Shown one piece after another: positions 26,188 through 50,514 of a DNA stretch of 64,000 nucleotides. The DNA lies in NCBI GenBank assembly GCA_903870365.1, contig CAIQCQ010000034.1, positions 2,665 through 66,664 of the forward strand, written 5' to 3'. The position numbers and the translations under genes were made by a program. This stretch comes from an uncultured bacterium (GTDB lineage: Bacteria > Patescibacteriota > Minisyncoccia > Phycocordibacterales > DATDWN01). Each line of letters opens with the position of its first letter. Position 1 is the first letter of the stretch. The notes under the pieces are model-generated. The model was given only the letters and a program-made list of their open reading frames with translations, ran no database searches and was not told the origin of the DNA.

Positions 26188-26400
26188 TTTTATTTTGACT
26201 AGCATTGAATGAAGTGGAAAAGTACTCTTTTCCACTTCTGAGATGTGACGTCAAAACAAACGACAGTTTGTTTTGCGAATAACCCACTGCGTGAGCGTGG
26301 GGATGAAACAAAAGTTTCCTGAAGCTTTGCTTCAGGATGAATTGGCTTCGCCAATTCATCTCAGGAATACCCCGGGCATGAGCCCGCGGGTCGTTTATTT
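26188..26400. repeat. Repeat-E copy A (213 bp, multi-hairpin)
   Basis: About 95% identical to the reverse complement of 50301-50514. Confidence 0.85.
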
Positions 26401-26901
26401 AAAAGTATTATCGTCAGCTGATGGACCATAGATAGACGGCACGGGTATATTGTTTAGACGCATATACACAGTCAATTGCCCCCTGTGATGCACCCAATGT
26501 CTGAGCTGAGAAGCAACACTTTCATCTTTTGCAGATTTCATCAATTCCTTATCACCCATTTTTAAATAAAACATTTTTGTGGTCAATTCTTCGTCCGAAA
26601 TCTTCTTAAGAGAGTTCTTTGCTAATTCAATATTGTCATCAAAATATTTTAATAAATCAGCATTGGTACTCAATGTATACTTTTTCCAGGTCGCAAAATC
26701 AATTTCACCTTTTTCTATTGTAATACTAATCCATTTTGGAACCTCTGCTACGATAGTAGACAAATAACCCATCTGCATAGATTTCTCATGAGGTTTGTAA
26801 TCGTATAGACTTTCTGGAATTCTCTCTAAACATTTCCTGGTAGCCGCCACCTCCTCTTCCAATTCTTTTAAAAACATGTGAGCGATTATATTTTTATTCA
26901 T
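26395..26901 (-). CDS. DinB/YfiT-like metal-dependent hydrolase superfamily protein
   Basis: HWVHHRGQ motif; about 168 aa. Confidence 0.6.
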   Translation of the reverse strand: MNKNIIAHMFLKELEEEVAATRKCLERIPESLYDYKPHEKSMQMGYLSTIVAEVPKWISITIEKGEIDFATWKKYTLSTNADLLKYFDDNIELAKNSLKKISDEELTTKMFYLKMGDKELMKSAKDESVASQLRHWVHHRGQLTVYMRLNNIPVPSIYGPSADDNTFK

Positions 26902-26987
26902 AAATATATGATAATAATTTTATTTAAATAATAACTATGTGTCCTGCACGAAATCCAAACTTTTTAAATATCCCTGATGATCAAAAA

Positions 26988-27224
26988 TTAATCGTTTTCT
27001 TTTTTGTCCCATTCACTCTGAAACCACGCAAACCACTTTTTTCGGTCTTCTTCTGTATGATTTGGATTCAACATCATTTCTCGCATTGTTGCATGTACCT
27101 CATCTGTTGAACTAGAAACATGCTTACTACATTGACTTGCAACATTCACAGGATCTGCTCCGATAAACTTCATCTCACACCCTCCTTCGTTATTCATAAT
27201 TTCTTTACATGTAAATGTTTTCAT
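26988..27224 (-). CDS. DUF1059-like small metal-binding protein
   Basis: MKTFTCKEI...GGCEMKF...H pattern. Confidence 0.4.
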   Translation of the reverse strand: MKTFTCKEIMNNEGGCEMKFIGADPVNVASQCSKHVSSSTDEVHATMREMMLNPNHTEEDRKKWFAWFQSEWDKKEND

Positions 27225-27286
27225 AAATATACTTTGTTATTTATAAATTTATAATTCGACACAACCTGAGCATCACTCGACTTGGC

Positions 27287-27355
27287 TGGGAGACTAGGAA
27301 TCGAACCTAAATTAAAGGCTTCAAAGGCCTCTGTCCTGCCGTTAGACGATCTCCC
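27287..27355 (-). tRNA. tRNA-Gln(TTG)
   Basis: Hand-folded cloverleaf; anticodon loop CTTTGAA; T-loop TTCGATT. Confidence 0.65.
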
Positions 27356-27468
27356 AATGTTTTCTACTGTATCAGATTTTTTATTATTTTTCTATATAGC
27401 ACTATAGAAAAATGCCCTTGCAGAGTCCACTGGTGGTGAACATTCTGCAAGGGCATGACGACTCAAAA

Positions 27469-27684
27469 CTATACATCTTGTAAGGTCATCGGAAAAATTT
27501 GTTTAATAGCAGAAGTCACAGGGTTCTCATCTCCCTCATCACACTTTTGAAAAGCGAGTGTAACAACCTCCATCCTTTTTTCAGCCGATACTTCTATTCC
27601 TTTCAAATGTACTTCTAGTTCCCCAAACACGAGCCTTCTTACTTCTCGTGCATACGCTTCAGTATCATTTAGTGTCGGTGGCAC
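27469..27684 (-). CDS. hypothetical protein
   Basis: 71-aa ORF downstream of dnaX (the usual ybaB position, but the sequence is not YbaB-like). Confidence 0.3.
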   Translation of the reverse strand: MPPTLNDTEAYAREVRRLVFGELEVHLKGIEVSAEKRMEVVTLAFQKCDEGDENPVTSAIKQIFPMTLQDV

Positions 27685-27733
27685 AAAGCTCTCCTTCCCT
27701 CTCTTTTATACCACACCACAAAAAATCAGTCTA

Positions 27734-28759
27734 CTATTTATCTCCTACTATCTCCATCAACGCCAATTCGAGTGGCAGAGACGCAATATATGCTCGAGTA
27801 GTGGCTGTGTACGCATCAAGCAGTTTAACGATCGTATCAGAGCCGACCGTTACATTTGTATCGAGAGCGATTTTTGAGATAAATGCAAAATCATCTTCAG
27901 ACATATCCCCTTTGACCAAATCCTCGGATCCAAAGCGAACAAGCAGCACCGCTCGCATTTTTTGCAACAATAATTTTAATAACACCGACATGTCGAGGTT
28001 GGCTTGTGACGCCTCACGCACAGCATTCAGTCCTTTATGCAAATCCTTTTCAGTAATAGCAGAGACGATAGCGTTGACCAGTTCCCCTTTTGGCGCACCC
28101 GTGACGGTCAAGACGTCTTCATCTGATATTTTTTTCGCCACTGCGGCTGACAACACTTTTTGCAACGTCCCCAATGTATCCCGAAATGATCCATCGCCAA
28201 TGAGGGCGACCAAATCTGCTGACACATCAGACAGCGTATACCCTTCTTTCTTGGCCACACTCAAGACTACTTTTTTTAAAGTCTCTTGGTTTGGTTTACG
28301 AAAAGTATGAACTTCACAACGAGAAAGTATGGTCTCGGGGATCTTGTGTGTCTCGGTCGTAGCCAGGATAAAGATGACATGTTCTGGTGGCTCTTCGAGG
28401 GTCTTCAAAAACGCATTGCTCGCCGACTTGGACAACATATGGACTTCGTCCAGTATGTATACTTTATATTTTGAATCAAATGGCAGTGTGTTGACTGATT
28501 CATTGAGCTCACGAATATCGTCCACCGATGTTTTTGACGCAGCATCTATCTCATAAATGTCGTTTGGTGAGGTGCCCAGCTCTCGAGCCAGGATACGAGC
28601 GATCGAGGTCTTACCGATGCCCCGAGAACCAGCAAACAAATAGGCGTGCCCGACAGTGCCGTTTGTGATCTGAGCTTGTAGTGTTTTAACAATGGCATCT
28701 TGGCCAACAACATCAGTAAATGTATGTGGACGATATTTTCGATAGAGAACTTCTGACAT
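27734..28759 (-). CDS. dnaX: DNA polymerase III subunit gamma/tau (short form)
   Basis: Walker A GSRGIGKTS; LDEVHMLS...EEPPEHVIFILATTE. Confidence 0.85.
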   Translation of the reverse strand: MSEVLYRKYRPHTFTDVVGQDAIVKTLQAQITNGTVGHAYLFAGSRGIGKTSIARILARELGTSPNDIYEIDAASKTSVDDIRELNESVNTLPFDSKYKVYILDEVHMLSKSASNAFLKTLEEPPEHVIFILATTETHKIPETILSRCEVHTFRKPNQETLKKVVLSVAKKEGYTLSDVSADLVALIGDGSFRDTLGTLQKVLSAAVAKKISDEDVLTVTGAPKGELVNAIVSAITEKDLHKGLNAVREASQANLDMSVLLKLLLQKMRAVLLVRFGSEDLVKGDMSEDDFAFISKIALDTNVTVGSDTIVKLLDAYTATTRAYIASLPLELALMEIVGDK

Positions 28760-28814
28760 GAGGATAGTTTAGCATACGAATATCCGAATTGGGAATTTCC
28801 GAATAGTTTTGAAT

Positions 28815-28967
28815 AAAAGCAGCCCTGCCGTCCATCCTCGCAGTAGAACTGACGAGGTATTAGCGGCAGGAACCAGGGCTCTTATATTCGTAGAAGAATC
28901 GGCCTCCGCCGATACTGTTATACCAATCCTCGCTGCAGAGCAGACGAGGTATTTCTCGAATAAAAAA
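28815..28967 (+). repeat. Repeat-B copy 2 (structured ~150-nt element)
   Basis: Reverse-complement match to 8272-8424, with an identical 40-nt core and covarying stems. Confidence 0.8.
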
Positions 28968-28979
28968 AATTTGATTAAA

Positions 28980-29700
28980 AAAAGACCCCCCGCCCGCGTA
29001 CGAGACGCGAGCGAGGGTTTGAGGGAGAAGACTACTGGCAACGAGAGACCGGGGGAGCACCCGGACCACATAGGAGGTTAAACATCAATCGTCCGGGACA
29101 AATATCCCGGACCCGACGAGGTTAGACTTTGCCGGCACCCTGCAGTGCCGCAAACTGATTCGTGTTCGTGCGCTTTGTCATGGTTGTAGGCCCTCCTAAG
29201 AGCCATTCCATTTGTTAGAATATCAAATCAATACATCCTGTCAAATATTTTTTTACAAACTTGTGAACAACTTTTTGCAAAAAGAAAACCGCACTCTTGT
29301 GGAGTGGGTTGTATAGGGCGCCGCATGGAGGAATCATCCAGCGCCCGTATTTGAGAATTCTTCCAAGGGGTTCTTATTCCCTTCTGATCCACTGATTGAT
29401 GTGACCAGATTTGGCAACTTTGCGAAAATTAAAACCGATTGTTCCTGTCGCCAAGGTATCATGGAAAGATTTTGTTGTCAAGTAAATTTTTGCAACAGAA
29501 AACCCCACGTCTTAGGTGGGGGTACTACTCGCTGGCCGGCGACTGTTACCAGGTGATGGTTGTGGTCGCTTGCCCGCGGCCGTCAGGTCGTCGCCGTGGC
29601 GCCGGTGGTGAAGGAAATGAACGTTGTCATATTATGGGTGCCTAGGCGGAGCGTGCGTGCGGACGTGGTCGGCGGACTGTGAAGTCGTATGTATTTCTCC
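28980..29700. ncRNA. ORF-free GC-rich region, candidate large structured RNA(s); identity unresolved
   Basis: About 1.2 kb between dnaX and dus with no ORF over 100 aa; local GC well above the genome background; many stable hairpins; internal repeat TTTTTGCAAnAGAAAACC plus hairpin at ~29270 and ~29487. Confidence 0.4.
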
Positions 29701-29932
29701 TTGTTGTTGACTCGGTACTCTCTTGGTAGCAAAAACAAACAAATGAAAAATGAATCTGGATAGTAGGTTAGCAAACTTCACAGAAATAGTCAAGTGTCAA
29801 ATGCAGAAAAATCAATTTTCTTTTTTATATTTGAAAAATATGGCTTACAATATGGATGCTTTTGGATGGTGGAAAAAATAAGATTTTTTGAGAGTCTCTT
29901 TTTTTCACTTTTGACTTTACGGACTTTCGACT

Positions 29933-30961
29933 TTATAGACTACTCAAGTATTCCCGAATCACCCCCTCCACCTCCCCCGCATTATTACATTCCATCAGTC
30001 TCACCCGCAATTCCTTTGCCCCATCCCACCCATTCACATATGCTTTGAAATGTTTTTTCATCACCGAGAAATTTTTATATGCACACAATTCTTCAAATGC
30101 TTTGGTATGTTCAACCAATACCAATAATCGTTCTTCTGGGGTTCTACTTTTTCTATCACTTGCAAACAACCACGGGTTTCCAAAAATAGCACGGCCAAGC
30201 ATGGCACCGTCGGCCCCCGTTTCTGCACACAGTCTTTTTCCATGTTCAATATCGGTCACGTCGCCATTACCGAGTATCAAGGTTTTTGATTTTAGTTCAT
30301 CACGAATCTCCACTGCACGTTTGATATGTTCCCATCTAGCAGGTACTAATGACATTTCCTTTCGTGTTCGTGCATGTACCGTGATCGCTGCTGGCTCCGC
30401 AGATAATAGTATGGGTAACCATGTTTCAAGTTCATTCTTGTTGTATCCAATGCGAGTTTTAACAGAGACAGGGATCTCTTTCTCCTGCCATTCTTTAATT
30501 TCTTTTTCACTTGTATTTTCCTCTCTTAATTTTTCTATTTTTCTATTTTTATATTCTTCTATACCTCGCTGTGCAGCTTTAATAAGCTCGACAGCGAGAG
30601 GCGGATTTTTGATCAACCCCGCACCAGCACCCTGCTTCTCCACCGACTTATCTGGACAACCCATATTGATATCGATCCCATCAAAACCAAGCTCTACTGC
30701 AAGTTGTGCCGCGCGCTCCATCATATCTGGACGACTGGTGAAAAATTGTGCCACGATCGGTCGCTCACTTTCGGAATATGCAAGATCTTTGATGAGAGAA
30801 TCGTATCCACCCATAAACAGACCATCAGCCGACACAAACTCTGTCCACATCACGTCTGGTTTACCATACGTGGCAATGATACGTCGAAAAGCTGGATCAG
30901 TCACATCTGCCATGGGGGCTAACACAAGTATAGGGTGCTGTAATTTTTTCCAAAAACTCAT
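29933..30961 (-). CDS. dus: tRNA-dihydrouridine synthase
   Basis: VLAPMADVTD...DINMGCP... Confidence 0.85.
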   Translation of the reverse strand: MSFWKKLQHPILVLAPMADVTDPAFRRIIATYGKPDVMWTEFVSADGLFMGGYDSLIKDLAYSESERPIVAQFFTSRPDMMERAAQLAVELGFDGIDINMGCPDKSVEKQGAGAGLIKNPPLAVELIKAAQRGIEEYKNRKIEKLREENTSEKEIKEWQEKEIPVSVKTRIGYNKNELETWLPILLSAEPAAITVHARTRKEMSLVPARWEHIKRAVEIRDELKSKTLILGNGDVTDIEHGKRLCAETGADGAMLGRAIFGNPWLFASDRKSRTPEERLLVLVEHTKAFEELCAYKNFSVMKKHFKAYVNGWDGAKELRVRLMECNNAGEVEGVIREYLSSL

Positions 30962-31090
30962 ATCCGTTAGAGTAACTTAATTCATCCAGTAAGTCTAACG
31001 TGTAAATTTCTACCTCAGGAGTACCTGATGTGTAAGTGTTCCCTTATAATTAACCTAATTACTAATTTCTAAAGGAGACCGTTTAAAGAA

Positions 31091-31441
31091 CTAACATTTT
31101 TTATATATTGCATTGAATATAAGATTTAATTCTTTTGCTTCGGTCCAAAGTTTTCTTGCCTCTATTTTTACTTCTGGAACTGCAACAACAGACATTCGTA
31201 AAAAATGCTTTGTTTCTCTAGATTCTTTTTTACAAATACCTATTTTATGTTGAAAATCTTTCCGAGACTCAGCGTCATCAGCTTCACAATAGTTTGCACC
31301 CACACTTGTGCCGCATTTTACTAATTGATTTATAAGAGGTCGTGTAATTTCATTTTTTGGTAAATTTTTACAAAATATAATAATATCTTCACCAAATTTA
31401 GCAGTTCTTTCCTCTAGGTTAAAACGTGACGTACTATCCAT
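31091..31441 (-). CDS. four-helix-bundle protein (TIGR02436; 23S rRNA intervening-sequence protein family)
   Basis: KFGEDIIIFCKNLPK...GTSVGANYCEA...KDFQHKIGICKKESRETKHFLRM. Confidence 0.8.
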   Translation of the reverse strand: MDSTSRFNLEERTAKFGEDIIIFCKNLPKNEITRPLINQLVKCGTSVGANYCEADDAESRKDFQHKIGICKKESRETKHFLRMSVVAVPEVKIEARKLWTEAKELNLIFNAIYKKC

Positions 31442-31477
31442 TTGAATTTTTAGAAATTAGAAATTAGAAATTTTTTC

Positions 31478-32335
31478 TCATCTCACTTTGTAATATACTT
31501 TATTACCGTATCGTAGATCAATATAATCGACAAGTAACTCTCCATCTTTTTCTGGCACAAGATTTGCTGTCTGTAACAACTTTTGCAGATTAGATGCCGT
31601 TTCAGCGAGTGGAGACTTGGCATCAAAAATAATATAGCCACCACCGTACAAATACATTTCAAAATCATCCTGTGTAGTCGCTACTATATATAGTGGGGTG
31701 ATATTGAGGGCCTTCACGGCTTCAACAAATTGCGACAATTGTCCAAAGGTATCTGATGATGACAAATATGATGAACCAATAGCTGATTCAAATGGCACCA
31801 ACCCATAATATTTAAAATAAGCATCACCAGAAAAGTCTGGGGCTTGAGAAAAAACAAAACCTGTCTTGTCGAGGAAATAACACTGTGGGGCTATAGTCGG
31901 GTCGGTACTCGAAGCAATTTGTTCCGGAGAGAGATTGCACCACAAAGCAGATGGTTGGCGTTCGGTCACAGTCACGCCGATAGTATGATAATTAACCAAA
32001 CTCACAGAGACAGTCTGTATGCGTGGAAATTGCTGTTGGAGAAAAATAGTCAGGCCTTTTCGTGGGTACAATAGCGCATTTTTCTTGCTCAAGACATATA
32101 TATAGTTACCCGAAATATACTGCGAGACAGACTGTTTAATTTGGTCAGGTGACAAGATGACTGTACCAGTCACCTGAACCATATCAATGGATACTTTTGA
32201 CCAGTGAGTTAGGCCAGCAAAGCCAGCAATGAGTATCACGAGTACCACACACCAGAAAGAAACATGTTGAATAAGACGCTTTTTCTTTTTCTCCAAATAA
32301 TCAGGGTTATGATACGTTTGTGATTTTTGAATCAT
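31478..32335 (-). CDS. putative cell division protein FtsQ/DivIB-like (TM plus POTRA-like)
   Basis: N-terminal TM and overall size/architecture; weak. Confidence 0.35.
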   Translation of the reverse strand: MIQKSQTYHNPDYLEKKKKRLIQHVSFWCVVLVILIAGFAGLTHWSKVSIDMVQVTGTVILSPDQIKQSVSQYISGNYIYVLSKKNALLYPRKGLTIFLQQQFPRIQTVSVSLVNYHTIGVTVTERQPSALWCNLSPEQIASSTDPTIAPQCYFLDKTGFVFSQAPDFSGDAYFKYYGLVPFESAIGSSYLSSSDTFGQLSQFVEAVKALNITPLYIVATTQDDFEMYLYGGGYIIFDAKSPLAETASNLQKLLQTANLVPEKDGELLVDYIDLRYGNKVYYKVR

Positions 32336-32433
32336 CCCGTTAGAGTTTTATTGAGGGTCTTCTAATAATCAAATAGTCTACGTGCCAAGAATATATCCAT
32401 ATCATAACAAACTATAGCTAAAACTCTAACGGG
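32336..32433 (-). mobile_element. MITE-like 98-nt element, copy 3, inserted at the start codon of the ftsQ-like gene
   Basis: Perfect 15-bp TIRs; 5-bp direct repeat ATGAT on both sides. Confidence 0.75.
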
Positions 32434-32507
32434 ATCATCTGCTTATTGTATCAAAAATCTCTACTTTCGTAGAGATTTTTGTACTTTCTTCTTCGTAATT
32501 CTTACTT

Positions 32508-33812
32508 CTAGTTTCTTTTTTCTATCTTTGTCTGTCCACCCATATATGGCACGAGCGCGTCAGGGATTTTGATTGAACCATCTGATTGCTGGTAGTTTTC
32601 CATAATCATGATCAGCGGTCGACCAGACAATGCAGTGTTGTTCAGAGAGTGTACAAATTTTAACTTTCCGTCATCATCTCGATAGCGAATATTCAATCGA
32701 CGTGTTTGGAAATCATGAAAATATGACGCTGAGCCAGTCTCTCTGTATGCATTCTCAGATGGCAACCAGACTTCGATATCATATTTTTTGACTTGGCCGA
32801 GACCAAGGTCACCACCACAATTGACCACCACGTGATATGGCAAACCAAGAGCTTCGGTAATCTCCTCAGTATTTCTCTGCACTTCTTCGTGATAGGTGAC
32901 TGACTCAGTATGTGAAGCTTCACACAAGACAACTTGTTCTAGTTTATAAAATTCATGCACACGCAAAATACCACGGGTATCCTTGCCATGACTACCTGCT
33001 TCACGCCGAAAGGCAGATGAAAACGACAGCATCTTTAATGGTAAATCTTTCTTATCCAAAATTTCATCCATATAATATCCCATGGTCGCTACCTCTGCAG
33101 TACCTGACAAATACTCACCGTCCTGTGTTTTATACAAATCATCTTCACCTTGTGGAATATAGCCAGTCCCGAGCAACAATTCGCGTTTTAACAAACTGGG
33201 CACAATCATTGGATTCCATTGTACTGTCCGTTCTGATCCTTCGGAAACGGTTGCACTTTTTTTATGAAAAAAATCTTGGACAAACTGCCACAATGCAAAC
33301 TCTAATCGAACAGCGTCACCTTTCAAAAAATAGCCACGAAAACCGGCAACCTTTGTACCACGTTCGAGGTCGAGCATTCCCAAGTTAGTCATCAACTCAA
33401 TATGATCCTTTGGCGTAAAATCAAATTTCGGAATCGTCCCCCATGTTTTGATTTCCATATTTTCACTATCGTCCACTCCATCTGGTACAGACATATCTGG
33501 TACGTTTGGCACAGCAATCATCAATGTCTGCCATTCTTTCATCACATCTTTCAATGTCTCTTCTTGTTTTTGTAGTGTTTCCTTGAGCAACTTCATCTCT
33601 TCGAGCAAGATACCCCGACGACTTTCGTCTGCTGTGGGGATCTCCTTACTGACCTCGTTTTGTCGGGCACGTGCAGTCTCCACACTGGCCATGAGCTCAC
33701 GGCGTTTGTCGTCTACTGCAATGAGGGCTTCGACGTCAAAATCAATGTGCTTTTTCTTGGCACCTAGGGCAACAATATCTTTGTTCTCGCGGATGAATTT
33801 AATGTCGAGCAT
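32508..33812 (-). CDS. serS: seryl-tRNA synthetase
   Basis: N-terminal coiled coil; class II motifs (FRREAGSHGKDTRGILRVHEF...GSASYFHDFQTRR). Confidence 0.9.
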   Translation of the reverse strand: MLDIKFIRENKDIVALGAKKKHIDFDVEALIAVDDKRRELMASVETARARQNEVSKEIPTADESRRGILLEEMKLLKETLQKQEETLKDVMKEWQTLMIAVPNVPDMSVPDGVDDSENMEIKTWGTIPKFDFTPKDHIELMTNLGMLDLERGTKVAGFRGYFLKGDAVRLEFALWQFVQDFFHKKSATVSEGSERTVQWNPMIVPSLLKRELLLGTGYIPQGEDDLYKTQDGEYLSGTAEVATMGYYMDEILDKKDLPLKMLSFSSAFRREAGSHGKDTRGILRVHEFYKLEQVVLCEASHTESVTYHEEVQRNTEEITEALGLPYHVVVNCGGDLGLGQVKKYDIEVWLPSENAYRETGSASYFHDFQTRRLNIRYRDDDGKLKFVHSLNNTALSGRPLIMIMENYQQSDGSIKIPDALVPYMGGQTKIEKRN

Positions 33813-33841
33813 TGTGTATGTATAGTAACAATAAAATTAAC

Positions 33842-33877
33842 AAAAGAAAATCGGCTAGCGTCCAAAGACAGCTAGCC
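33842..33877 (-). promoter_or_regulatory. terminator-type hairpin in the serS 5' leader (candidate attenuator / T-box-like leader)
   Basis: CGGCTAGC-loop-GCTAGCCG followed by ATTTTCTTTT on the minus strand, ~35 nt upstream of the serS ATG; no upstream co-directional gene. Confidence 0.4.
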
Positions 33878-34001
33878 GGAGGAGTTGGTCTCTTGAGCAA
33901 AGCTCATTGTAGGCGTCCCACAAACGCCTCGTTCTTCGGTCTCCATAGACCTACACCAAACGTTGCTCATATAGTAATAAAAGCTGTATTATTAGTCAAA
34001 C

Positions 34002-35180: not shown

Positions 35181-35270
35181 AAATACTTTGCCACTAATCA
35201 ATCCCGCCACCACGGCAACGGAAATCCGTTCGCTTCGGTGTGCGGATTTTTTGTATTAATTAATTTTTCT

Positions 35271-35298
35271 GTCATTCCCGCGAAAGCGGGGATCCAGG
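35271..35298 (-). repeat. REP-like unit (GTCATTCCCGCGAAAGCGGGGATCCAGG)
   Basis: Same family. Confidence 0.8.
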
Positions 35299-35325
35299 AT
35301 GTAAAGATGAATATGATTGGATACA

Positions 35326-35355
35326 CTGGATTCCCGTCTGCACGGGAATGACGGG
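35326..35355 (+). repeat. REP-like unit, identical to the 4318 copy
   Basis: Same family. Confidence 0.8.
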
Positions 35356-35461
35356 AAAAAATATTTAGAAATTAGAAATTAGTAATTAGGAATTTTTTAA
35401 ATAAAAAAATATCACTTATTTGCAAAAAGTTTAAAATACGGTAATACTAGACGAATATGAT

Positions 35462-38054: not shown

Positions 38055-38115
38055 GATTCAGGATTCCTAGCAGCAGAGGAAAGCTCACTACGGGACAAGC
38101 AAAATTGGAATGAAA
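38055..38115 (+). repeat. REP-like unit with a long central hairpin
   Basis: Paralog of 2123-2185. Confidence 0.7.
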
Positions 38116-38775: not shown

Positions 38776-38895
38776 ACTTTCACAATTTCGCCAAGGTCGC
38801 TTATAAAATATGAAAAGGGACCGGAGACGTAGTTAGCACTACGATGAGGACCATTTTTATATTTTAGAAGATGAGATTGGTGAAATTTGGAAGTT
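38776..38895. repeat. Repeat-C copy 2
   Basis: About 85% identical to 2223-2342; hairpin CGTAGT-tagc-ACTACG covaries with copy 1 (CGTACT-tagc-AGTACG). Confidence 0.8.
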
Positions 38896-40473: not shown

Positions 40474-40624
40474 AATGATCTTCTCCGCAAATAATATTAC
40501 TTAATATATATAAAAAAACAAGTAGAATTTAAAAATTTACTTAGTGATATACACATAACAGTAGAAAATGGTAAGGAAGGACTTTTCCTCAAAAAAACTC
40601 ACACCATCGTGTGAGTTTTTTCTG

Positions 40625-40688
40625 GACACCAGATTGGCGACAAACGCTACTGCGTTCGTAGACCGCTGATTCGTGCAAGTCCCTCATA
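40625..40688 (-). repeat. Repeat-D copy (tRNA-downstream palindromic element)
   Basis: CAGATTGGCGACAAAC...GTTCGTAGACC; family shared with 44551, 55031 and 63446. Confidence 0.75.
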
Positions 40689-40744
40689 CAAAGCTCCGCT
40701 TTATTCTCCGGCACAAAAAAACCGCTCACGCGGATTTTTTCTTG

Positions 40745-43235: not shown

Positions 43236-43296
43236 CCGAGTATATCAAAAAAGTAAACGTAACAAAAAGGGGCAGGCCGTAGCCCACCCCCTTATT

Positions 43297-44289
43297 TTAC
43301 GAACAAAGTATCTCGCGAATTACTTCCCACGAAAAATCAGAGAACCTTTTTCGAGACACCTCGTTGTCACCACAAAAAACACGGTTAGTCAGAATACACA
43401 CAGTAACTGCCGGATCCCGAGTAAAAAACACCCGACACCCCGTCCAGCCGGCAAACAACAACGGCCTGTCTACCGAAATTCCAGTCAGATTTTTCGCGTA
43501 CGGAATATCGAACCCAAGGGCATATTCATAATCCACGATGCCCAGTTTACCAAGCTGATTACTTGATGCTCTATCGTAGAAAAGAGACCGGCGCATTGCA
43601 CCAATCGTGACGTGAAAAATATCTGCAATCATAGCTGCGTCCGAAAACAAACCGGCAGCAACAATATTGTCATGCGGATGATTTGATGACAAAGGATCGT
43701 GGACCAGTCCACGAAGACCCTCATCAGCCCGTGTTGGCACGATCAAGCCTGGTTGAACCAAACCCCGACGAACTGGGTTAAAAAGAAAATTTTCTTTATT
43801 CAAACCACCAAGTAAATGCGTGTGGAGTATATCCTCGATACCTCCAGAAAAAAAACTTTCGAGAAATAAGCCAACGTATGCACTTGCCAAATTATCGTAA
43901 TGAAACTCCTTCTCCCAGTGCGCAAAACCAGTTTTCATTAGAATTTCTTTGAAGGGCCCAAGGTTGCCGATCCGCAACATATCAAAATCAAAAGCATACG
44001 TCTGTACAACGTACGTCATGAAATGCCACAGTTGCCGACCATTACTGTTCGGTACGGACAAAAAGTCACCCAAGTCATCTTCTGGTGATATCGCCTCCTG
44101 AAAAAATAACTTCCACATCAACAGATAGGTCACCGCCTTGGTCAGACTGGATACATCAAACAGTCGTGCACCTTTCGACAAATGTTGACCACCTGAAAAC
44201 TCGATATCAATGGGACCTCTCACACACACATCAAAGTCTGTGAAGAGACCCTCCGCCACACCTCTTTCAAACAGCCTTTGTATGTTCAT
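43297..44289 (-). CDS. serine hydrolase, beta-lactamase / DD-peptidase fold
   Basis: SxxK motif (SSLTK) near the N-terminus; 330 aa. Confidence 0.6.
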   Translation of the reverse strand: MNIQRLFERGVAEGLFTDFDVCVRGPIDIEFSGGQHLSKGARLFDVSSLTKAVTYLLMWKLFFQEAISPEDDLGDFLSVPNSNGRQLWHFMTYVVQTYAFDFDMLRIGNLGPFKEILMKTGFAHWEKEFHYDNLASAYVGLFLESFFSGGIEDILHTHLLGGLNKENFLFNPVRRGLVQPGLIVPTRADEGLRGLVHDPLSSNHPHDNIVAAGLFSDAAMIADIFHVTIGAMRRSLFYDRASSNQLGKLGIVDYEYALGFDIPYAKNLTGISVDRPLLFAGWTGCRVFFTRDPAVTVCILTNRVFCGDNEVSRKRFSDFSWEVIREILCS

Positions 44290-44550
44290 CTACCAACCTC
44301 CGCAAGCAAGTATACCCACCTCGTAATTTTAAGCAAGAAGGACTTTGTGGGTACAATAGAGTGGATAGTTAAAACCACTAAAATTACTTTATCTTTCTAA
44401 TCAACTCCAAAAATTATTTTATCATGTCTCACAACAACAATGACAGGATAAATTTTTGTATTACCAATTTGTAATAGTCTTTCCATATATTTATATATTT
44501 TTTGGAGAAATCTCCCTCGAAAATTTTGCGCCGTCGCTTAAAATTTTCTG

Positions 44551-44612
44551 GTCACCAGTTTGGCGACAAACTCTGCTGAGTTCGTAGACCACCAAACTGT
44601 TCAATTCCTCGA
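44551..44612 (-). repeat. Repeat-D copy
   Basis: CAGTTTGGCGACAAAC...GTTCGTAGACCACCAAACTG downstream of tRNA-Trp. Confidence 0.75.
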
Positions 44613-44634
44613 CAAAAAAACTTCGGTTTTTCTG

Positions 44635-44705
44635 CGGGCCCACGAGGAATCGAACCCCGGTCGCTCCTTTTGGAGAGGAGTATTCTGCCACTAAACTATA
44701 AGCCC
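44635..44705 (-). tRNA. tRNA-Trp(CCA)
   Basis: Hand-folded; anticodon loop CTCCAAA. Confidence 0.7.
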
Positions 44706-44958
44706 GTAAGTTCTCATACTAACAAAAATTCGCCATTTCGGCGAATTTTTGAATACTTTTTGATTATTTCTTTGCTTCCTTGAAGGTAATCCGCTTTCTC
44801 AGCTTTTTTGAGTACTTCTTGAGCTCGATTTTTCGCTCAACTTTCTTCTTATTCTTGCGCGTCCAATACACCTCTCCGGATGCCTTGTTTTTTATTTGGA
44901 TCAATCTGTCTTGTGACATAGTAGGACCATAATAGCCTAAAATCAGCCAGAGAGCAAG

Positions 44959-45801
44959 CTAGTACTTCCGGCTATTGTTTTCAAACAATTCCATGACCTG
45001 CTTGGTCACTGGACCAACATTGCCTGTACCGATCACCGTGTCCCCCACCTTGACCACCGGTACCACGTCTTTAAAGCTCGAGCTGATAAAACACTCATCG
45101 GCATCATAGAGCTCTTCGAGCGATACGTTACATTCCAGCACTTCTAAGCCCTGTGCTCGAGCGAGATCAATGACCACTTTACGTGTCACTCCATACAAAA
45201 TACTATCTTTTGGTGTCAGAATTTTTCCTCCAGCCACCACAAAAAAGTTACTGGTGGCACATTCCAAAATCTGCCGTCGCCAGGTATACAAAGTTTCGAG
45301 TGCATGAGCTTCCTTCATCTTTTTCTGCAACGGCACCGCACTAATGTAATTGATGGTTTTGTACTCTGGATATTCCCGCAAATGTTCTTTGAGTAGGACA
45401 CTCGCTCCATGTGTATAATATTTTTCGTCAATCGGTTTCCACTCTTCAGTAAAGATATAGAATGTTGGGGTGCTCCGATCGTAATCAATACCACCAATTG
45501 CCTCTCCTCCAGTCAAGATGAACTTGATATTTGTCCGTACAAACCCATTTTTCTCTACCAATTCATACATGATCCGAACAATCTCTTCATCACTGACAGG
45601 AACAGGTATATCCAAAAACTGCGCTGACCTACGAAACCGAGCGAGGTGGTCGTCACACATAAAAACCTTCCCATTTAAAGTGGTCAGGGCTTCGTATATA
45701 CCAAAGCCACGCAACATACCAATATCAAAAATACTCACCTTGGCCTCACTCTCTGGTATGATATCTCCGTTTAAGTAGCAATATCGCATAGTGCTCATGA
45801 T
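44959..45801 (-). CDS. class IV aminotransferase (branched-chain amino acid / D-amino acid aminotransferase)
   Basis: Fold-type IV sequence; start moved to MSTMRY because the longer ORF overlaps tRNA-Tyr. Confidence 0.75.
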   Translation of the reverse strand: MMSTMRYCYLNGDIIPESEAKVSIFDIGMLRGFGIYEALTTLNGKVFMCDDHLARFRRSAQFLDIPVPVSDEEIVRIMYELVEKNGFVRTNIKFILTGGEAIGGIDYDRSTPTFYIFTEEWKPIDEKYYTHGASVLLKEHLREYPEYKTINYISAVPLQKKMKEAHALETLYTWRRQILECATSNFFVVAGGKILTPKDSILYGVTRKVVIDLARAQGLEVLECNVSLEELYDADECFISSSFKDVVPVVKVGDTVIGTGNVGPVTKQVMELFENNSRKY

Positions 45802-45849
45802 AACAGAAGAGTGAGGAACAAAAAACACCTTTGTAAGGTGTTTTTTTTG

Positions 45850-45932
45850 TGCGCCGAGTTGGACTCGAACCAACGATACCCAATGGGTGGGAGATTTACA
45901 GTCTCCTGGAATAGCCGCTATCCGATCGGCGC
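45850..45932 (-). tRNA. tRNA-Tyr(GTA)
   Basis: Hand-folded; anticodon loop CTGTAAA; long variable arm; T-loop TTCGAGT. Confidence 0.75.
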
Positions 45933-45998
45933 ATACTTCTGCATATAGGACTGTATCATATTTTTGATATCTAGTAAAAGCATTCTGTTTGCATTTAT

Positions 45999-46391
45999 TT
46001 GGCACAACATAGGAAAAATATGACCCTCGAAGCTCTTTCTGATTATTTTATCGCTGAAGTAGATCCTTGCCTATCAAATACCTTCATGCTGACGTTTCGG
46101 TATGATGAGGCCACAGTAACCATTCGCCTTAAGTTTGCTGATGAAGAAAGTGGTACCGATATGATCATCACCGGTGTCACGACTCATCCGTTTACGGAGA
46201 GAAAAAGTAATTATGCCAACATAGCGTTGCAACAAGTACTCGACTGGGCTGATGAACAAAACCTATGGAGTATCGAAGCCATACGAGTGAGCAGACGGGA
46301 TGAGTCTTTCTGGAGGAGAAATCATTTCTGGCCAATCGGTAACCCCACCAGAGATTTCAAGTTTACACATACACAAAAGAGGACCGAGTGA
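45999..46391 (+). CDS. hypothetical protein
   Basis: 130-aa ORF. Confidence 0.4.
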   Translation: MAQHRKNMTLEALSDYFIAEVDPCLSNTFMLTFRYDEATVTIRLKFADEESGTDMIITGVTTHPFTERKSNYANIALQQVLDWADEQNLWSIEAIRVSRRDESFWRRNHFWPIGNPTRDFKFTHTQKRTE

Positions 46392-46432
46392 ATATACTCA
46401 GTCCTCTTTTTTTATTAGCAACGTAAAATGTT

Positions 46433-49144
46433 TTAACCTTCCGTCACTTCACTAACCACAAAGTTTTCCGTCACCCCAGACTTGCGTGGATTCTTCACAT
46501 CAAAAGTAAACTCCATTGCACCATCACCTTTTTTATCCCCTGCTTTGACCGAGACACTCACACGACTACCCTTGCCCATCTTCTTACCCACCATGAGTGA
46601 GGCAATAGGCGTCAAGATTTTGTTTTGAATCAAACGTTTGAGTGGTCGTGCGCCATACTGTGGGTTGTATCCGTCTTTTGCCAACTGCTCCAACACACCA
46701 TCACTCAACTCTAGTCGAATTTCTTTTTCTGCTAGTCGGCGGACCACCAACTCAACCTGGATTTTCACAATATCTTTAATTATTTCTTTGCCCAATACAT
46801 CAAAGACAATAATATCATCGAGACGGTTCAAAAATTCTGGACGGAAATGGTCTTTCAGTGCTTCGAGTACTTTATTTTTTGCTTCTGTGTAATTTGTTTT
46901 TTCTGTTTGTTCACCTTCACCATGGGCATTAAAGCCAATTTTTTCCATACGATCAATGTACTGCCCACCAATGTTTGAGGTCAGGATGATTACCGTATTG
47001 CGAAAGTTCACTACTCGTCCCTTGGCATCGGTCAGTTTACCGTTGTCGAGGACTTGTAACAAAATATTAAAGACTTCTGGATGGGCCTTTTCTATCTCAT
47101 CAAAGAGAATAACTGAATATGGTCGATGACGCACGGATTCGGTAAAATTACCTGAATCATCGTGGCCAACATATCCTGGAGGTGCGCCGATCAATTTACT
47201 AACGGAATGTTTTTCCATAAATTCTGACATATCGACACGGATCAGCGCTTTGTCGTCGTCAAACATAAACTCAGCCAATGCTTTGGTTAGCTCGGTCTTG
47301 CCCACACCAGTCGGACCAAGGAAGAGGAACGAACCAATTGGTCGGTTTGGATCAGCAATACCGACACGAGAACGCTTGATAGTGTCCGAAATCTTCTTGA
47401 CTGCTTCTACTTGACCGACAATGCGTTCTCGCAAAACTTCTTCCATGCGGTGGAGCTTGTCTGCTTCTTGCTCAAGCATGCGGGAGACCGGCACACCAGT
47501 CCATTTGGAAACAATACGGGCAATATCATCTGCGGTGACTTCTTCTTTCAAGATGCGTCGTGATGACTGCAATTTCTTCAATCGCTTTACACGCAAATCC
47601 AATTCTTTTTCTGTTGCAGGAATAGTACCGTAGCGGATTTCTGCCGCCTTTGCCAAATCCACTCGCGCTTCTGCCGAGTCGGCGTCAAGGCGCAGTTCCT
47701 CCAACTTTTTTTTGATTATTTTAATCTCTACCACCACCTCTTTTTCGTTTTTCCATTTCAAATCAATCTCACCAGTCTTGTCTTTCAAATCTGCGATGGC
47801 TTTTTGAATCTCCGTCACACGAGCCTTTGATTTTAAATCAGTTTCTTTTTTCAAAGCCTCTCGTTCGATTTCAAGTTTGACCAAGGCTGAATGTGCTTCT
47901 TGCAATACTGGTGGCATATTTTCCAAAGCAATCTTTAAATACGATGATGCTTCGTCAATCAAATCCACTGCTTTATCTGGCAAAAATCTATCAGTAATAT
48001 ATCGTGCAGAGAGGTTGACCGCAGCTACAATTGCTTCGTCGGTAATGTGAACACCGTGATACAACTCGTACTTTTCTTTTAATCCACGGAGGATAGTGAC
48101 TGCATCATCAATCGATGGCTCGTTGACATAGACCGGCTGGAAACGTCGTGACAAAGCTGGATCCTTTTCAATATGTTTCTGATATTCACGTAAAGTCGTC
48201 GCGCCAATAGCTCGCAGTTCTCCGCGGGCAAGGGCTGGCTTCAACATATTTGATGCATCGAGAGATCCTTCGGCCGCACCTGCACCCACCAGGGTATGCA
48301 ATTCGTCGATAAACAAGACAATTTTACCGTCAGATTTTTCAATTTCTTTTAAAATATTTTTCAATCGTTCTTCAAATTCACCACGGTATTTGGTACCAGC
48401 TACGAGGAGGCCAAGATCAAGTGAGACCAACTCTTTATCTTTGAGTGATTCTGGTACATCGCCCATAGACATACGAATAGCCAAGCCCTCAGCAATAGCA
48501 GTCTTGCCCACACCAGCTTCACCAATCAAGATGGGATTATTTTTCGTTCGTCGAGATAATATTTGTACAATACGCGAGATCTCTTCTTCACGACCAATAA
48601 CTGGATCAAGTTTGTTCTGCTGAGCAAGCTTGGTGAGTGATCGAGTGTACTTTGATAATGCTTTAAATTTTTTGGGTGAAGATATTTCTTCGTTTTTCTT
48701 TGTTCTGATTTCTTCTACCACCTGCATGACTTGTGGTTTGGTCAATTTAAATCGAGACAGTAAATCACGAGCGACACCAGGAATTTCTAGTGCAGAGATA
48801 AACAAATGTTCTGTAGAAACAAATTCATCGTTCATTTCTCGAGCGATCTTGGCTGAGTTTTCAATCATCTGGGCCAACTCAGGAGTCAGATAAATCTGAT
48901 ACGACGGTGACAAAGTTTGTCCGGCATCAGTCCCCTCGATAGCTTCAATGAGTGAGTCAGTGAGTAAAATAGTATCTATTTCCAGTCGATCAAGCAGTGA
49001 AGGAACAATTGATTCCTCTTGCAAGACAAGGGCCGTCAACAAATGTAGTGGTGAGACGTGGTTTTGACCACGTTCAATAGCCAGCTCGTGTGCTCGGCGA
49101 ATGGCTTCTTTTGCTTTTGTGGTGAAATTATTAAATGGAGGCAT
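46433..49144 (-). CDS. clpB: ATP-dependent chaperone ClpB
   Basis: 903 aa; two AAA+ modules (GEAGVGKTA; GPTGVGKTE) with a long middle coiled coil. Confidence 0.9.
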
Positions 49145-49286
49145 ATAAATAGAGGTTAGAATCTAGAATTAAGAATTACGAATAATAAAAACTGATAAAA
49201 ACCCTTGATAATAACCAAATTATAGCTAAAAAACCAAAATGTCAAAAAAAAGGATATTATCGATAAATTCTCAAACTTCAAGATTC

Positions 49287-49320
49287 TAGCTTGTAGCTTG
49301 TAGCTTGTAGCTTGTAGCTT
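49287..49320. repeat. tandem heptamer (AGCTTGT) x ~4.7
   Basis: Read directly; immediately 3' of the 49321 ORF. Confidence 0.8.
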
Positions 49321-50148
49321 CTACTTCGCCACTTGGATCGACTGCAAATCCTGTTTAATAATGGCCGAGGGCAGATATGATTTTGTTGAAGCAAATTCCG
49401 ACAATGATATGCCGATGACATTACCTGATAATGACAAAATAGGGGCACCAGAAACAGCATCGATAGGACTGACATCCCCTTCTACTGAAGATACGGACTT
49501 GGTGGCTGGTGTGGTGCTTGAAGCTGCCGTTTCTTTCATAGTGAGATACGCCACCCGACCCACAGCTACCGCATTACTACTGTCTCCACCAATTGATATA
49601 ATAGTCTGTCCAAGCTGGGCATCATTAACATCCAAAGTAGCTGGTGTAAATGTATACGGCTTCACTGGTTTTGCTTTAAAAAAAGAAACTTGCCATTTTT
49701 TATCTCCGGCAATAGCTACCAATGGAATAGTTACTCCATCTGAAGTCAGTGCCACATAATTCATAACTGGGGAAATATATTGTTTGTCTGCTACAACAAT
49801 ACCGTCACTCGAGATAATTACGCCGAGACTGTACAAGTTGTCGACACTCCCATCTGCATTTTGTTCACGAATACGAACAATCGATGGCGTATTTTTAGCG
49901 ATAGATGAGGTGACACTGTCATCCTCGTTGACCACCACAGTGGTGGTCTGTTTTCCTGTATTTGTACCAGTCACGGCCGCTGGGGTCACAGTCTCGATAG
50001 TTTTCTCTACTACTTGATTAACGGTCTTGGTTAGCTCCACTGGTGCTTGCATGAGCAAAGAGGTGGTCATGATACCGGTAGCAATAGATACGACAAAAGA
50101 GATGAGGATACAGAGGAGAATAATTTGATGTTTGTTGAGATCGTCCAT
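49321..50148 (-). CDS. membrane-anchored trypsin-fold (HtrA/DegP-like) protein, catalytic His apparently absent
   Basis: SLGVIISSDGIVVADKQYI (cf. GSGVII..GY.VTNNHV) and VSGAPILSLSGNVIGI (cf. GNSGGPL..G.VIGI). Confidence 0.4.
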   Translation of the reverse strand: MDDLNKHQIILLCILISFVVSIATGIMTTSLLMQAPVELTKTVNQVVEKTIETVTPAAVTGTNTGKQTTTVVVNEDDSVTSSIAKNTPSIVRIREQNADGSVDNLYSLGVIISSDGIVVADKQYISPVMNYVALTSDGVTIPLVAIAGDKKWQVSFFKAKPVKPYTFTPATLDVNDAQLGQTIISIGGDSSNAVAVGRVAYLTMKETAASSTTPATKSVSSVEGDVSPIDAVSGAPILSLSGNVIGISLSEFASTKSYLPSAIIKQDLQSIQVAK

Positions 50149-50248
50149 CCCGTTAGAGTTTTAATGAAAACCTTCTAATAATAAAATAGTTTACGTAGTA
50201 AAAAATATATGTACATACTATCAATCCCATAGATAAAACTCTAACGGG
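50149..50248 (-). mobile_element. MITE-like element, copy 4, inserted at the start codon of the 49321 gene
   Basis: Perfect TIRs; both flanks are ATGG (TSD-like). Confidence 0.75.
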
Positions 50249-50300
50249 ACCATAGCGTGTTAAGTATAACAAATCTACATCTCAAAGCCCAAACGTCAAA

Positions 50301-50514
50301 AAATAAACGACCCACGGGCTCACGCCCGGGGTATTCCCGAGATGAATTGGCGAAGCCAATTCATCCTGAAGCAAAGCTTCAGGAAACTTTTGCTTCATCC
50401 CCACGCTCACGCGATGGGGTATTCGCAAAACAAACTGTCGTTTGTTTTGACGTCACATCTCAGAAGTGGAAAAGAGTACTTTTCCACTTCATTCAATGCT
50501 AGTCAAAATAAAAA
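50301..50514. repeat. Repeat-E copy B (inverted relative to copy A)
   Basis: About 95% identical to the reverse complement of 26188-26400. Confidence 0.85.

Follow-up and report, generated by a model that had tools for sequence, protein, structure and literature searches.

A 213-nt sequence occurs twice, in opposite orientations and ∼24 kb apart, in the 64-kb stretch of a Patescibacteria (Paceibacteria-like) chromosome analyzed here (the window), and core genes lie between the two copies. The locus raises the question of what kind of element this is: the arms of a composite transposon, a recombination switch, a mobilised repeat, a small RNA gene in two copies or a dispersed structured repeat.

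Repeat unit, copies and neighbouring genes

The unit at 26188-26400 on the forward strand (copy A) corresponds to 50514-50301 on the reverse strand (copy B), and both copies are intergenic. The inverted repeat that the preliminary description had reported was recovered with a repeat search, which returned arms of 224 nt (26177-26400 and 50301-50524; 95% complementary, spacing 23,900 nt), and with blastn, which aligned copy A to copy B over 219 nt at 95.9% identity (E = 7e-98). Within the 213-nt unit the copies differ at 7 internal positions (26282, 26287, 26288, 26308, 26363, 26378 and 26387), giving ∼96.7% identity. All 7 differences fall in the 3′ half of the unit and the first ∼95 nt are identical. 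The edges of the unit are sharp and the sequences flanking copies A and B are unrelated. Both copies were recovered with their copy-specific SNPs in independent assemblies (type A in L002, type B in L003 and L004), so the repeat pair is not an assembly artefact. A genome-wide search for further copies had been suggested; the 64-kb window was searched for complete or partial ones using blastn with a word size of 7, nhmmer and a covariance model of the element, and nothing beyond the known pair and its internal palindromes was detected. In all, 35 repeat pairs occur in the window, almost all of them intergenic.

The heptamer TTTATTT is present at both edges of each copy. Because the same heptamer is found in both copies it is indistinguishable from a terminal direct repeat. 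T-rich words of this type are common in the intergenic DNA of this genome and the heptamer could belong to the element. At the 3′ edge of copy A it contains the stop codon (26395-26397) of a DinB-family gene.

Copy A lies between the start of a gene encoding a 157-aa protein (25639-26112, reverse strand) and the stop codon of the DinB-family gene (26395-26901, reverse strand), and is antisense to both. Copy B is co-directional with its neighbours and is wedged between two predicted sites, the terminator of an upstream small transcription unit and the promoter of the protease-clpB genes (Table 1). The genes around the copies encode DinB, the 157-aa zinc-ribbon protein, NADAR, a ClpX-type zinc-finger ORF, the protease and a desulfurase, with a desulfurase-protease spacing of ∼970 nt. 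The protease gene occupies 49321-50148 and the ClpX-type zinc-finger ORF 50763-51008. The neighbouring zinc-finger ORFs were considered as a common partner of both copies; the two proteins were found to be unrelated. Searches against Pfam confirmed the core genes reported between the copies, identifying dnaX, dus, serS, dprA, topA, parB, miaA, a Mur ligase and clpB.

Table 1. Features of the repeat and its surroundings in window coordinates. TTTATTT positions were read from the sequence.
Feature	Position	Strand	Details
Copy A	26188-26400	+ (taken as sense)	Covariance model score 255.9 bits
Copy B	50301-50514	- (sense strand)	Covariance model score 251.7 bits; identical sequence in contig L003 from another sample
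TTTATTT, copy A	26189-26195 (+), 5′ edge; 26394-26400, 3′ edge		
TTTATTT, copy B	50512-50506; 50307-50301	-	
Hairpin 1	26211-26238	+	GAAGUGGAAAAG-UACU-CUUUUCCACUUC, 12 bp; copy B 50490-50463
Hairpin 2	26252-26275	+	CAAAACAAAC-GACA-GUUUGUUUUG, 10 bp, GNRA loop; copy B 50449-50426
Hairpin 3	26283-26301	+	CCCAC(U)GC-GUGA-GCGUGGG, GNRA loop; one pair is C-G in A, U-G in B
Hairpin 4	26305-26318	+	GAAAC-AAAA-GUUUC; one pair is A-U in A, G-U in B
Hairpin 5	26319-26335	+	CUGAAGC-UUU-GCUUCAG, 7 pairs (8-9 bp counting flanking bases)
Hairpin 6	26336-26360	+	GAUGAAUUGGC-UUC-GCCAAUUCAUC, 11 bp; copy B 50365-50341
Hairpin 7	26369-26400	+	CCCCGGGC-AUGA-GCCCG(C)GGG, then UCGUUUAUUU
Intrinsic-terminator-like hairpin	50516-50541	-	Upstream small transcription unit; T-tract forms the 5′ edge of copy B
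Promoter-like site TTGACG-16-TAGATT	50272-50299	-	Directly after copy B; predicted to drive the leader of the protease gene
Large serine recombinase, 546 aa	56180-57820		Beside tRNA-Leu, 5.7 kb outside the interval; the only recombinase found

Hairpin chain and pattern of substitution

Seven local hairpins follow one another back to back in the unit, which does not fold as one long hairpin. The hairpins named in the preliminary description were all present, although they had been quoted from a mixture of both strands. Both strands fold far more stably than shuffled sequence (z = -9.1 and -10.1). Stems are nearly perfect and unrelated to one another in sequence, with loops of 3-4 nt. Two GNRA loops, both invariant, are formed on the sense strand; the opposite strand has none. 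Hairpin 7 is terminator-like on the sense strand in both copies, with a bulged stem that was not called by the terminator scan, and A, G and C all occur as the first base of its loop across copies and samples. On the opposite strand hairpin 5 is followed by UUUUGUUU and gave a terminator-like call in both copies.

Eight substitutions were compared with this fold, the 7 between the copies and 1 population SNP. Six are located in loops, bulges or linkers; the remaining 2 lie in stems of local hairpins and both give G-U pairs on the sense strand. About 62% of the positions in the substituted (3′) half are paired, and our own binomial estimate from the 8 events gave p values of roughly 0.01-0.04. 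The invariant GNRA loops and the G-U-only stem changes point to an RNA-level constraint on the + strand of copy A, as judged from sequence comparison.

A protein-coding reading was rejected for both strands. In copy A a TGA interrupts the long antisense frame, and 5 of the 7 differences are non-synonymous in the 48-52-aa frame of the sense strand. Protein databases were searched with two frames crossing the element; the 71-aa frame returned no candidates and the 81-aa frame only three repetitive, unrelated proteins.

Relatives, public collections and orientation of the interval

A 258-kb contig of a relative is collinear with the window from outside copy B to dnaX (RbfA/IF-2, protease, clpB, miaA, parB, topA, serS, dus, dnaX), where synteny stops, and the element is absent from it at site B. 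In contigs L006, L007 and L008 the protease lies within ∼80 nt of the desulfurase (35 nt in L008). The covariance model was run over ∼100 kb of related genomes, including the desulfurase-protease loci of L006-L008, and no copy was found. Site A is in a non-syntenic variable region. Because the relative is collinear and lacks the element at site B, the window orientation was taken as ancestral and copy B, at least, as a later addition. The closest relatives compared are distant (protease ∼65% identical, DnaX ∼84%), so absence of the element there does not separate a recent insertion from ordinary turnover of small RNA genes.

Comparison with Rfam, proposed in the preliminary description, assigned the element to no family. 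When the whole window was scanned against Rfam 15, no family reached its gathering threshold on the element, and a search of the element at E ≤ 10 gave only sub-threshold chance matches (best 17.5 bits against a threshold of 37). An exact-word scan with a central 20-mer gave 0 matches in GTDB genomes and 0 in JGI metagenomes. The 20-mer from the 5′ end gave one match, close to chance expectation, inside an 832-aa ORF with no similarity in the flanks. No matches were obtained with a degenerate 30-mer from the 3′ end in public collections, with three hairpin words against viral contigs, or with blastn in 'distant' mode against phages and plasmids. The element is apparently lineage-specific and species-restricted.

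It had been suggested that recombination between the copies would invert the 24-kb interval. The ∼100 nt of perfect identity in inverted orientation are physically enough for RecA-type recombination, and several assemblies break inside the repeat, although such breaks are expected of any repeat of this length. A population mixing two isomers in this way is nevertheless highly improbable. Gene order in the window is collinear across junction B and the entire interval with the relative that has no copy at site B. Mean GC skew (∼-0.09 within the interval, -0.09 to -0.12 beyond it) neither flips nor flattens at the repeat, and inversion would probably set clpB, serS, dnaX and other genes against the replication direction deduced from skew. 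Neither same-species contig spanning a junction has the inverted orientation: the DNA of L003 crosses junction B in the window orientation, and jw3um2JX, represented by its gene table only, is consistent with that orientation at junction A. No invertase was found among the neighbours of either copy. Inversion is thus physically possible but unsupported, on the basis of the relative's collinearity, the uniform GC skew and the spanning contigs, and the inverted arrangement of the copies is best read as incidental.

A programmed invertible segment was likewise rejected, with no site-specific invertase adjacent and a single orientation in the spanning contigs. The Hin/Gin/Fim systems and shufflons resemble the present pair in that inverted repeats bracket a DNA segment. 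Those systems invert a small segment carrying a promoter or alternative gene ends, by means of recombinase sites of ∼15-40 bp and an invertase encoded next to them. The present repeats, of 213 bp, enclose 24 kb of core genes and have no neighbouring invertase, and a single orientation is seen.

Nature of the element

The preferred reading, to which we assign a probability of roughly 0.5, is a discrete, lineage-specific, dispersed intergenic repeat of ∼213 nt, composed of seven independent hairpins and copied to a second site of this chromosome. The preliminary description had left the choice between a structured repeat and a small-RNA gene. Its first part agrees with the discrete, structured, intergenic unit found here, and its second part is unproven, with no convincing promoter of the element's own and with copies oppositely related to their neighbours. 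The same description held that the pair is not a composite transposon, and this was upheld: the arms are 213 nt and non-coding, and no IS or transposase was found at either copy or elsewhere among the window proteins scanned.

A trans-acting small RNA gene, present as two ∼210-nt paralogues, would be transcribed in the sense direction, end at hairpin 7 and its U-tract, and bind through its linkers, among which the single-stranded, GGA-containing GGGGAUGA, CAGGAUGA and CAGGAAUA would be putative binding sites for protein or mRNA. This is rather unlikely. It would account for substitutions that preserve the hairpins and leave only G-U changes on one strand, for the two invariant GNRA tetraloops on that same strand, for the terminator-like 3′ end, and for a discrete unit conserved at 96-97% between copies whose flanks are unrelated; other small promoter-terminator units without ORFs also seem to be present in this genome. 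Against it, the shared sequence has no acceptable promoter: 17 nt after TTGACT stands AAAAGT, whereas the intergenic sites of the window that plausibly resemble promoters follow the pattern TTGACA-16/18-TAnnnT, which is only weakly enriched over shuffles. No promoter-like site was found on the sense strand upstream of either copy; the start of copy B abuts the terminator of another unit and that of copy A is 75 nt from a divergent start codon. Near-perfect stems with 3-4-nt loops leave little accessible sequence, and the failure to match Rfam and the absence of homologues from the relatives and public collections searched also weigh against such a gene. CsrB/RsmZ RNAs are similar in being ∼200-nt chains of stem-loops with GGA-containing linkers, but carry GGA mostly in hairpin loops and have their own promoters, whereas the element has 3-4-nt loops that lack GGA and has no evident promoter. 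Still less probable is a non-autonomous transposable element (a MITE, or a palindrome-associated element derived from IS200/IS605) mobilised in trans by a transposase encoded elsewhere. The discrete unit, the intergenic sites, the abundant hairpins, the identical heptamers at both junctions and the lack of the element at the orthologous site B in relatives are in keeping with mobilisation. However, terminal inverted repeats are absent: the 5′ end, TTTTATTTTGACTAGC, does not match the 3′ end in reverse complement, AAATAAACGACCCGCG. The element folds into successive local hairpins and is known in two copies only, and neither a transposase nor a RAYT was found among the proteins scanned in the 64 kb. 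Proteins scanned for transposases, invertases and Nop/Tas were those of the neighbours of both copies and most window ORFs of at least 100 aa.

Known repeat families share some of these properties. MITEs (Correia/NEMIS, ERIC, RUP) are alike in size (∼100-250 bp), intergenic location, strong structure, possible target duplication and the assembly breaks they cause, but are defined by terminal inverted repeats and one long hairpin, neither of which the element has. REP/BIME and BOX elements are extragenic, lineage-specific sets of several juxtaposed hairpin modules, found in either orientation relative to their neighbours. Many of them are located at the ends of genes or in the space separating a terminator from the promoter that follows, and they probably act at the RNA level as stabilisers or terminators. 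The REP sequences of enterobacteria are imperfect palindromes of ∼35 nt that share a conserved head, occur in tens to hundreds of copies and are associated with RAYT transposases, and BOX of Streptococcus pneumoniae has defined A/B/C modules; the element has seven unrelated near-perfect hairpins, two known copies, no sequence similarity to these families and no RAYT in the window. Membership of REP/BIME was rejected, as the stems of the seven hairpins are unrelated and do not form ∼35-nt units of a single consensus, and as the 64 kb contain two copies without partials. The TIGR arrays of Patescibacteria and phages resemble the element as tandem series of stem-loops, palindromic but variable in sequence, in a CPR genome (PMC12045711). 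Each TIGR unit has two 8-12-nt spacers flanked by box C/D motifs in each loop and lies beside a Nop-domain Tas gene (PMC12045711). A TIGR array was rejected on anatomy: the element has loops of 3-4 nt and irregular units, and none of the window proteins scanned carries a Nop domain.

As a dispersed repeat, the element may have reached new sites by insertion or by microhomology-mediated copying, with T-rich, terminator-type sequence as the target. Copy B would then have been placed exactly between a terminator T-tract and the -35 box of the next promoter, and copy A at the stop codon of the DinB gene. An insertion that duplicated 7 bp would imply an empty site of ...CCTCATTTTTATTT/TTTGACG... 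or ...CTAAATTTTATTT/AAAAGT..., with a single TTTATTT. The element would function as folded RNA in read-through or 3′-UTR transcripts, where it would probably terminate transcription, protect RNA ends or form a stable structured spacer; it would be neither a trans-acting gene nor a recombination switch. A relative likewise carries dispersed hairpin-chain repeats. Weighed against the dispersed-repeat reading were the two known copies, the lack of terminal inverted repeats and the lack of a mobilising enzyme in the window.

On its own the element matters little, as an unclassified structured repeat without detectable effect on gene order. The repeat accounts for the breaks that metagenome assemblies of this organism show at both sites, and by the comparisons above the 24-kb block of core genes is neither misassembled nor inverted. 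It adds to the evidence that families of folded, repeated elements take up a large share of the intergenic DNA of this small Patescibacteria genome. We regard as improbable the further proposal of a new class in Patescibacteria, an expressed multi-hairpin RNA of ∼210 nt that is mobile or kept as paralogues, has its fold under selection and inserts at terminator T-tracts. If it were true, the many other structured repeat families of the genome, such as shared 5′ leaders and tRNA-linked hairpins, would belong with it to one unexplored layer at which these reduced genomes are organised through RNA.

Repeat pair and hairpin chain

The longest inverted pair located in the window by repeat search has arms at 26177-26400 and 50301-50524 (224 nt, 95% complementary, 23,900 nt apart). 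The two copies of the element, copy A (plus strand) and copy B (minus strand), were aligned by blastn over 219 nt with 95.9% identity (E=7e-98). Pairwise alignment with flanks gave sharp edges, the element starting with TTTTATTTTGAC (26188; 50514 on the minus strand) and ending with GTCGTTTATTT (26400; 50301), and the flanks of the two copies are unrelated. Both copies were also recovered in independent metagenome assemblies of the same species, where contig L002 is 99.4% type A and adjoins DinB and contigs L003 and L004 are 100% type B and adjoin the protease gene. As each copy carries its own SNPs in these assemblies, the element is not an assembly artefact, and the inverted pair of the preliminary description is real by repeat search, blastn, bounds and independent assemblies alike.

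The copies differ at 7 positions (26282, 26287, 26288, 26308, 26363, 26378 and 26387), all of them in the 3' half and none in the first ~95 nt; we estimate the chance of all seven falling within the 3' 54% of the element at ~0.01. No third or partial copy was found in the 64 kb using blastn (word size 7), nhmmer and a covariance model. The covariance model (209 positions, 76 pairs) found no match in ~100 kb of relatives' DNA. Searches for exact words (GTDB representative genomes, JGI metagenomes, IMG/VR), blastn against phage and plasmid collections and translated-ORF searches found no copy; all of these would miss diverged copies. The source genome is evidently absent from the two large DNA collections scanned by exact words. 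No Rfam family matches the element.

The element is a chain of seven local hairpins (H1-H7), written on the plus strand of copy A. Folding compared with shuffles gave z=-9.1 and -10.1 on the two strands; strong folding of both is expected because the hairpins are near-perfect palindromes. Three features favour the copy A plus strand (copy B minus strand) as the one where structure matters. The GNRA tetraloops of H2 and H3 are invariant on this strand, and their complements (UGUC, UCAC) are not among the known classes of stable loop. Two substitutions in local hairpin stems are C-G to U-G and A-U to G-U on this strand, and read as A·C mismatches on the opposite one. H7 with its U-run is terminator-like, with a bulged stem that was uncalled by the terminator scan. 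Read on the opposite strand, H5 with the UUUUGUUU after it was called terminator-like in both copies.

An eighth substitution is a population SNP: the H7 loop opens with A, G or C, depending on the copy and sample. Loops, bulges or linkers hold 6 of the 8 substitutions, while ~62% of the 3' half is paired (our binomial estimate p ~0.04; ~0.01 with wobble direction included). This suggests, from few events, that selection keeps the hairpins.

Neighbouring genes and orientation of the interval

The host was placed in the Patescibacteria (Paceibacteria/Minisyncoccia-like) by the names of homologues. Copy A is flanked by two minus-strand genes, for a zinc-ribbon protein and a DinB-family protein, so its sense strand is antisense to both. 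The DinB stop codon (26395-26397) lies inside the element's terminal TTTATTT, and the last hairpins must therefore belong to the DinB 3' UTR. Copy B runs in the same direction as its minus-strand neighbours. Just upstream of it is a unit of ~150 nt (50516-50708, minus strand) with only a 4-codon ORF, a promoter-like site (50708-50680, TTGACA-17-TAGTCT) and a strong terminator (50541-50516) whose T-tract provides the first bases of copy B. The unit is a small-RNA candidate, and transcripts running past its end would include the hairpin chain. Directly after copy B are a promoter-like TTGACG-16-TAGATT (50299-50272), a conserved leader and then the protease and clpB genes. The zinc-finger neighbours of the two copies are unrelated to one another.

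No promoter-like site common to both copies was found inside the shared sequence or upstream on the sense strand. The 5' edge of the element has TTGACT, then AAAAGT at 17 nt; plausible intergenic promoter-like sites of the window are, in our reading, TTGACA-16/18-TAnnnT, which is weakly enriched over shuffles (15 sites vs 9.6±3.5).

Inversion of the 24-kb interval, proposed earlier as a possible outcome of recombination between the copies, is unsupported by gene order, GC skew and spanning contigs. Relatives' loci L006, L007 and L008 (protease ~65% identical) have the order cysteine desulfurase, protease, clpB, with the first two genes no more than ~80 nt apart (35 nt in L008); the desulfurase-protease gap in the window is ~970 nt. 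A 258-kb JGI contig (L006 and L014) is collinear with the window through RbfA, IF-2, DUF4446, desulfurase, protease, ClpB, aminotransferase IV, miaA, ParB, TopA, DprA, SerS, Dus, a gene-free gap and DnaX. Every gene orientation agrees, and synteny stops just after dnaX. The window's gene order is therefore ancestral, both at junction B and within the interval, which argues for the window orientation; by the same comparisons the element is absent from site B in relatives and copy A lies in a variable, non-syntenic region.

GC skew was negative throughout, neither changing sign nor flattening at 26.3 or 50.4 kb; our means were ~-0.09 for the interval and -0.09 to -0.12 for the DNA outside it. 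After an inversion, most genes of the interval would run opposite to the direction of replication that the skew suggests. L003, from another sample, crosses copy B with both flanks matching the window. Contig jw3um2JX, as read from its gene table alone, crosses junction A: a partial gene of 162 residues lies on the same strand as the 157-aa gene and 283 nt upstream of it, the exact window spacing. A 40.7-kb contig begins at DinB and continues beyond topA in window order. L001, L002 and L005 break off within the element, as assemblies ordinarily do at repeats. Linkage of SNPs to flanks is uninformative on crossovers in the identical 5' half, so only the few spanning contigs count.

Other repeats and the tRNA-linked region

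In the 64-kb window 35 repeat pairs were counted, nearly all of them intergenic, vs 1.4-3 per 10 kb in relatives' loci. A conserved leader module of ~105 nt, found only in same-species loci, lies directly upstream of four unrelated genes (protease, a POTRA-like 285-aa gene, a DoxX gene and a 73-aa ORF). It contains a 17-bp long-range helix (AUCCCGUUAGAGUUUUA / UAAAACUCUAACGGGAU) that would sequester the start codon, since the AU of the AUG is within the 3' arm. The helix is nearly invariant and therefore shows no covariation, and the module had no Rfam match. The module may be a translational control element common to these genes, or else a MITE whose terminal inverted repeats form the helix.

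A structured repeat of ~80 nt folds as a two-tier hairpin whose core (GGUCUACG/UGUCG) is conserved and in which 6 of 18 pairs show compensatory changes; it had no Rfam match. Three of its four copies are just downstream of tRNA genes (Leu-CAA, Trp, Leu-UAA), following a GNRA-loop terminator-like hairpin. In relative L006 a comparable repeat of three hairpins, also with compensatory changes, directly adjoins the 3' ends of tRNAs (5118-5279, 14697-14858). The 161-nt inverted pair (~80% identity) has one copy just upstream of dnaX and the other just upstream of an ECF sigma-factor gene, the latter overlapping a nuclease ORF in its N-terminal extension, which is doubtful. The pair is possibly one more promoter module or 5' leader shared between genes. 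Further intergenic families (75-95% identity) include several directly after minus-strand stop codons.

The dus-dnaX gap (1.17 kb) has higher GC (0.46), and its only ORF of at least 100 aa is implausible (28769-29071, 100 aa). Its three promoter-like sites (TTGACA-16/17-TAnnnT), each with a terminator-like hairpin after it, look like three small non-coding transcription units; no Rfam match was found (best E=0.14). Relatives have a gene-poor gap at the same place (L014 8823-10001, L016 8631-10001).

The only recombinase among the window ORFs scanned is a large serine recombinase directly abutting tRNA-Leu(UAG). Beyond it are several ORFs without Pfam match. The stretch 56115-61000, with a full-length LOOT RNA and a GC drop to 0.35-0.37, is probably a mobile element integrated at the tRNA gene. 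In the tRNA cluster a LAGLIDADG-type homing-endonuclease-like ORF overlaps the tRNA-Leu(UAG) start; relative L007 has a LAGLIDADG ORF after clpB. A recent paper (PMC13011429) reports group I introns in Patescibacteria tRNA genes.

Positions of the hairpins, neighbouring genes and other features in the window
Feature	Position	Strand	Description
H1	26211-26238	+ (copy A)	12 bp, loop UACU
H2	26252-26275	+ (copy A)	10 bp, loop GACA
H3	26283-26301	+ (copy A)	loop GUGA
H4	26305-26318	+ (copy A)	loop AAAA
H5	26319-26335	+ (copy A)	loop UUU
H6	26336-26360	+ (copy A)	11 bp, loop UUC
H7	26369-26391	+ (copy A)	loop AUGA, then UCGUUUAUUU
Zinc-ribbon gene	25639-26112	-	157 aa
DinB-family gene	26395-26901	-	
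ClpX-zinc-finger ORF	50763-51008	-	terminator-like hairpin 50742-50725
Leader module	50146-50254, 32333-32441, 17270-17377, 4573-4678	-	4 copies
~80-nt repeat	40612-40690 (-), 44538-44616 (-), 55032-55112 (+), 63449-63529 (+)		4 copies
161-nt pair	8272-8432, 28812-28972		inverted
ECF sigma-factor gene	8476-9060		
40-120-nt repeat families	1950-2340, 13967-14079, 18364-18508, 38055-38113, 38777-38895		
40-120-nt repeat family	4222-4348 / 6385-6474 / 35268-35359		
dus-dnaX gap	28760-29932		
Promoter-like sites in gap	29793, 29481, 29244	-	
LAGLIDADG-type ORF	55488-56138		
tRNA-Leu(UAG)	56115-56201		
Large serine recombinase	56180-57820	-	546 aa
LOOT RNA	59197-59316	-	90 bits

Nature of the element

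The preliminary description had offered a structured intergenic repeat or a small-RNA gene. The former is supported. A small-RNA gene is possible but the weaker reading, a free-standing small RNA being made less likely by the missing shared promoter. That the two copies relate to their neighbours in opposite ways speaks against both a dedicated 3' module and a cis-regulatory leader.

A dispersed repeat that would have been copied into T-rich terminator-type sequence fits a discrete unit absent at site B in relatives. It also fits the wedging of copy B exactly between a terminator T-tract and a -35 box, the position of copy A on a stop codon, and TTTATTT at both edges of both copies. Excising the element with one heptamer would give a plausible compact junction (...CCTCATTTTTATTT/TTTGACG...) at site B and would leave the same DinB stop codon at site A; the heptamers may equally belong to the element itself. 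The repeat reading is further supported by the genome background, that is, the abundance of repeat pairs in the window and the hairpin-chain repeats of the relative.

Among known systems the closest in behaviour are mosaic palindromic intergenic repeats (REP/BIME, BOX), but the element has none of their defining sequence features. A MITE was rejected as the element is without terminal inverted repeats; a programmed invertible segment and a TIGR stem-loop array (anatomy compared from PMC12045711) were likewise rejected. So was a composite transposon, as the preliminary description had held. No transposase, RAYT, small invertase or Nop-domain protein was found among the window ORFs scanned. The element was filed as an unclassified addition to the general kind of dispersed structured intergenic repeat. 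Selection at the level of RNA appears to preserve its hairpins. Its most economical function, at a guess, would be to serve read-through or 3'-UTR transcripts as a stable structured spacer, perhaps with termination or 3'-end protection in either direction.
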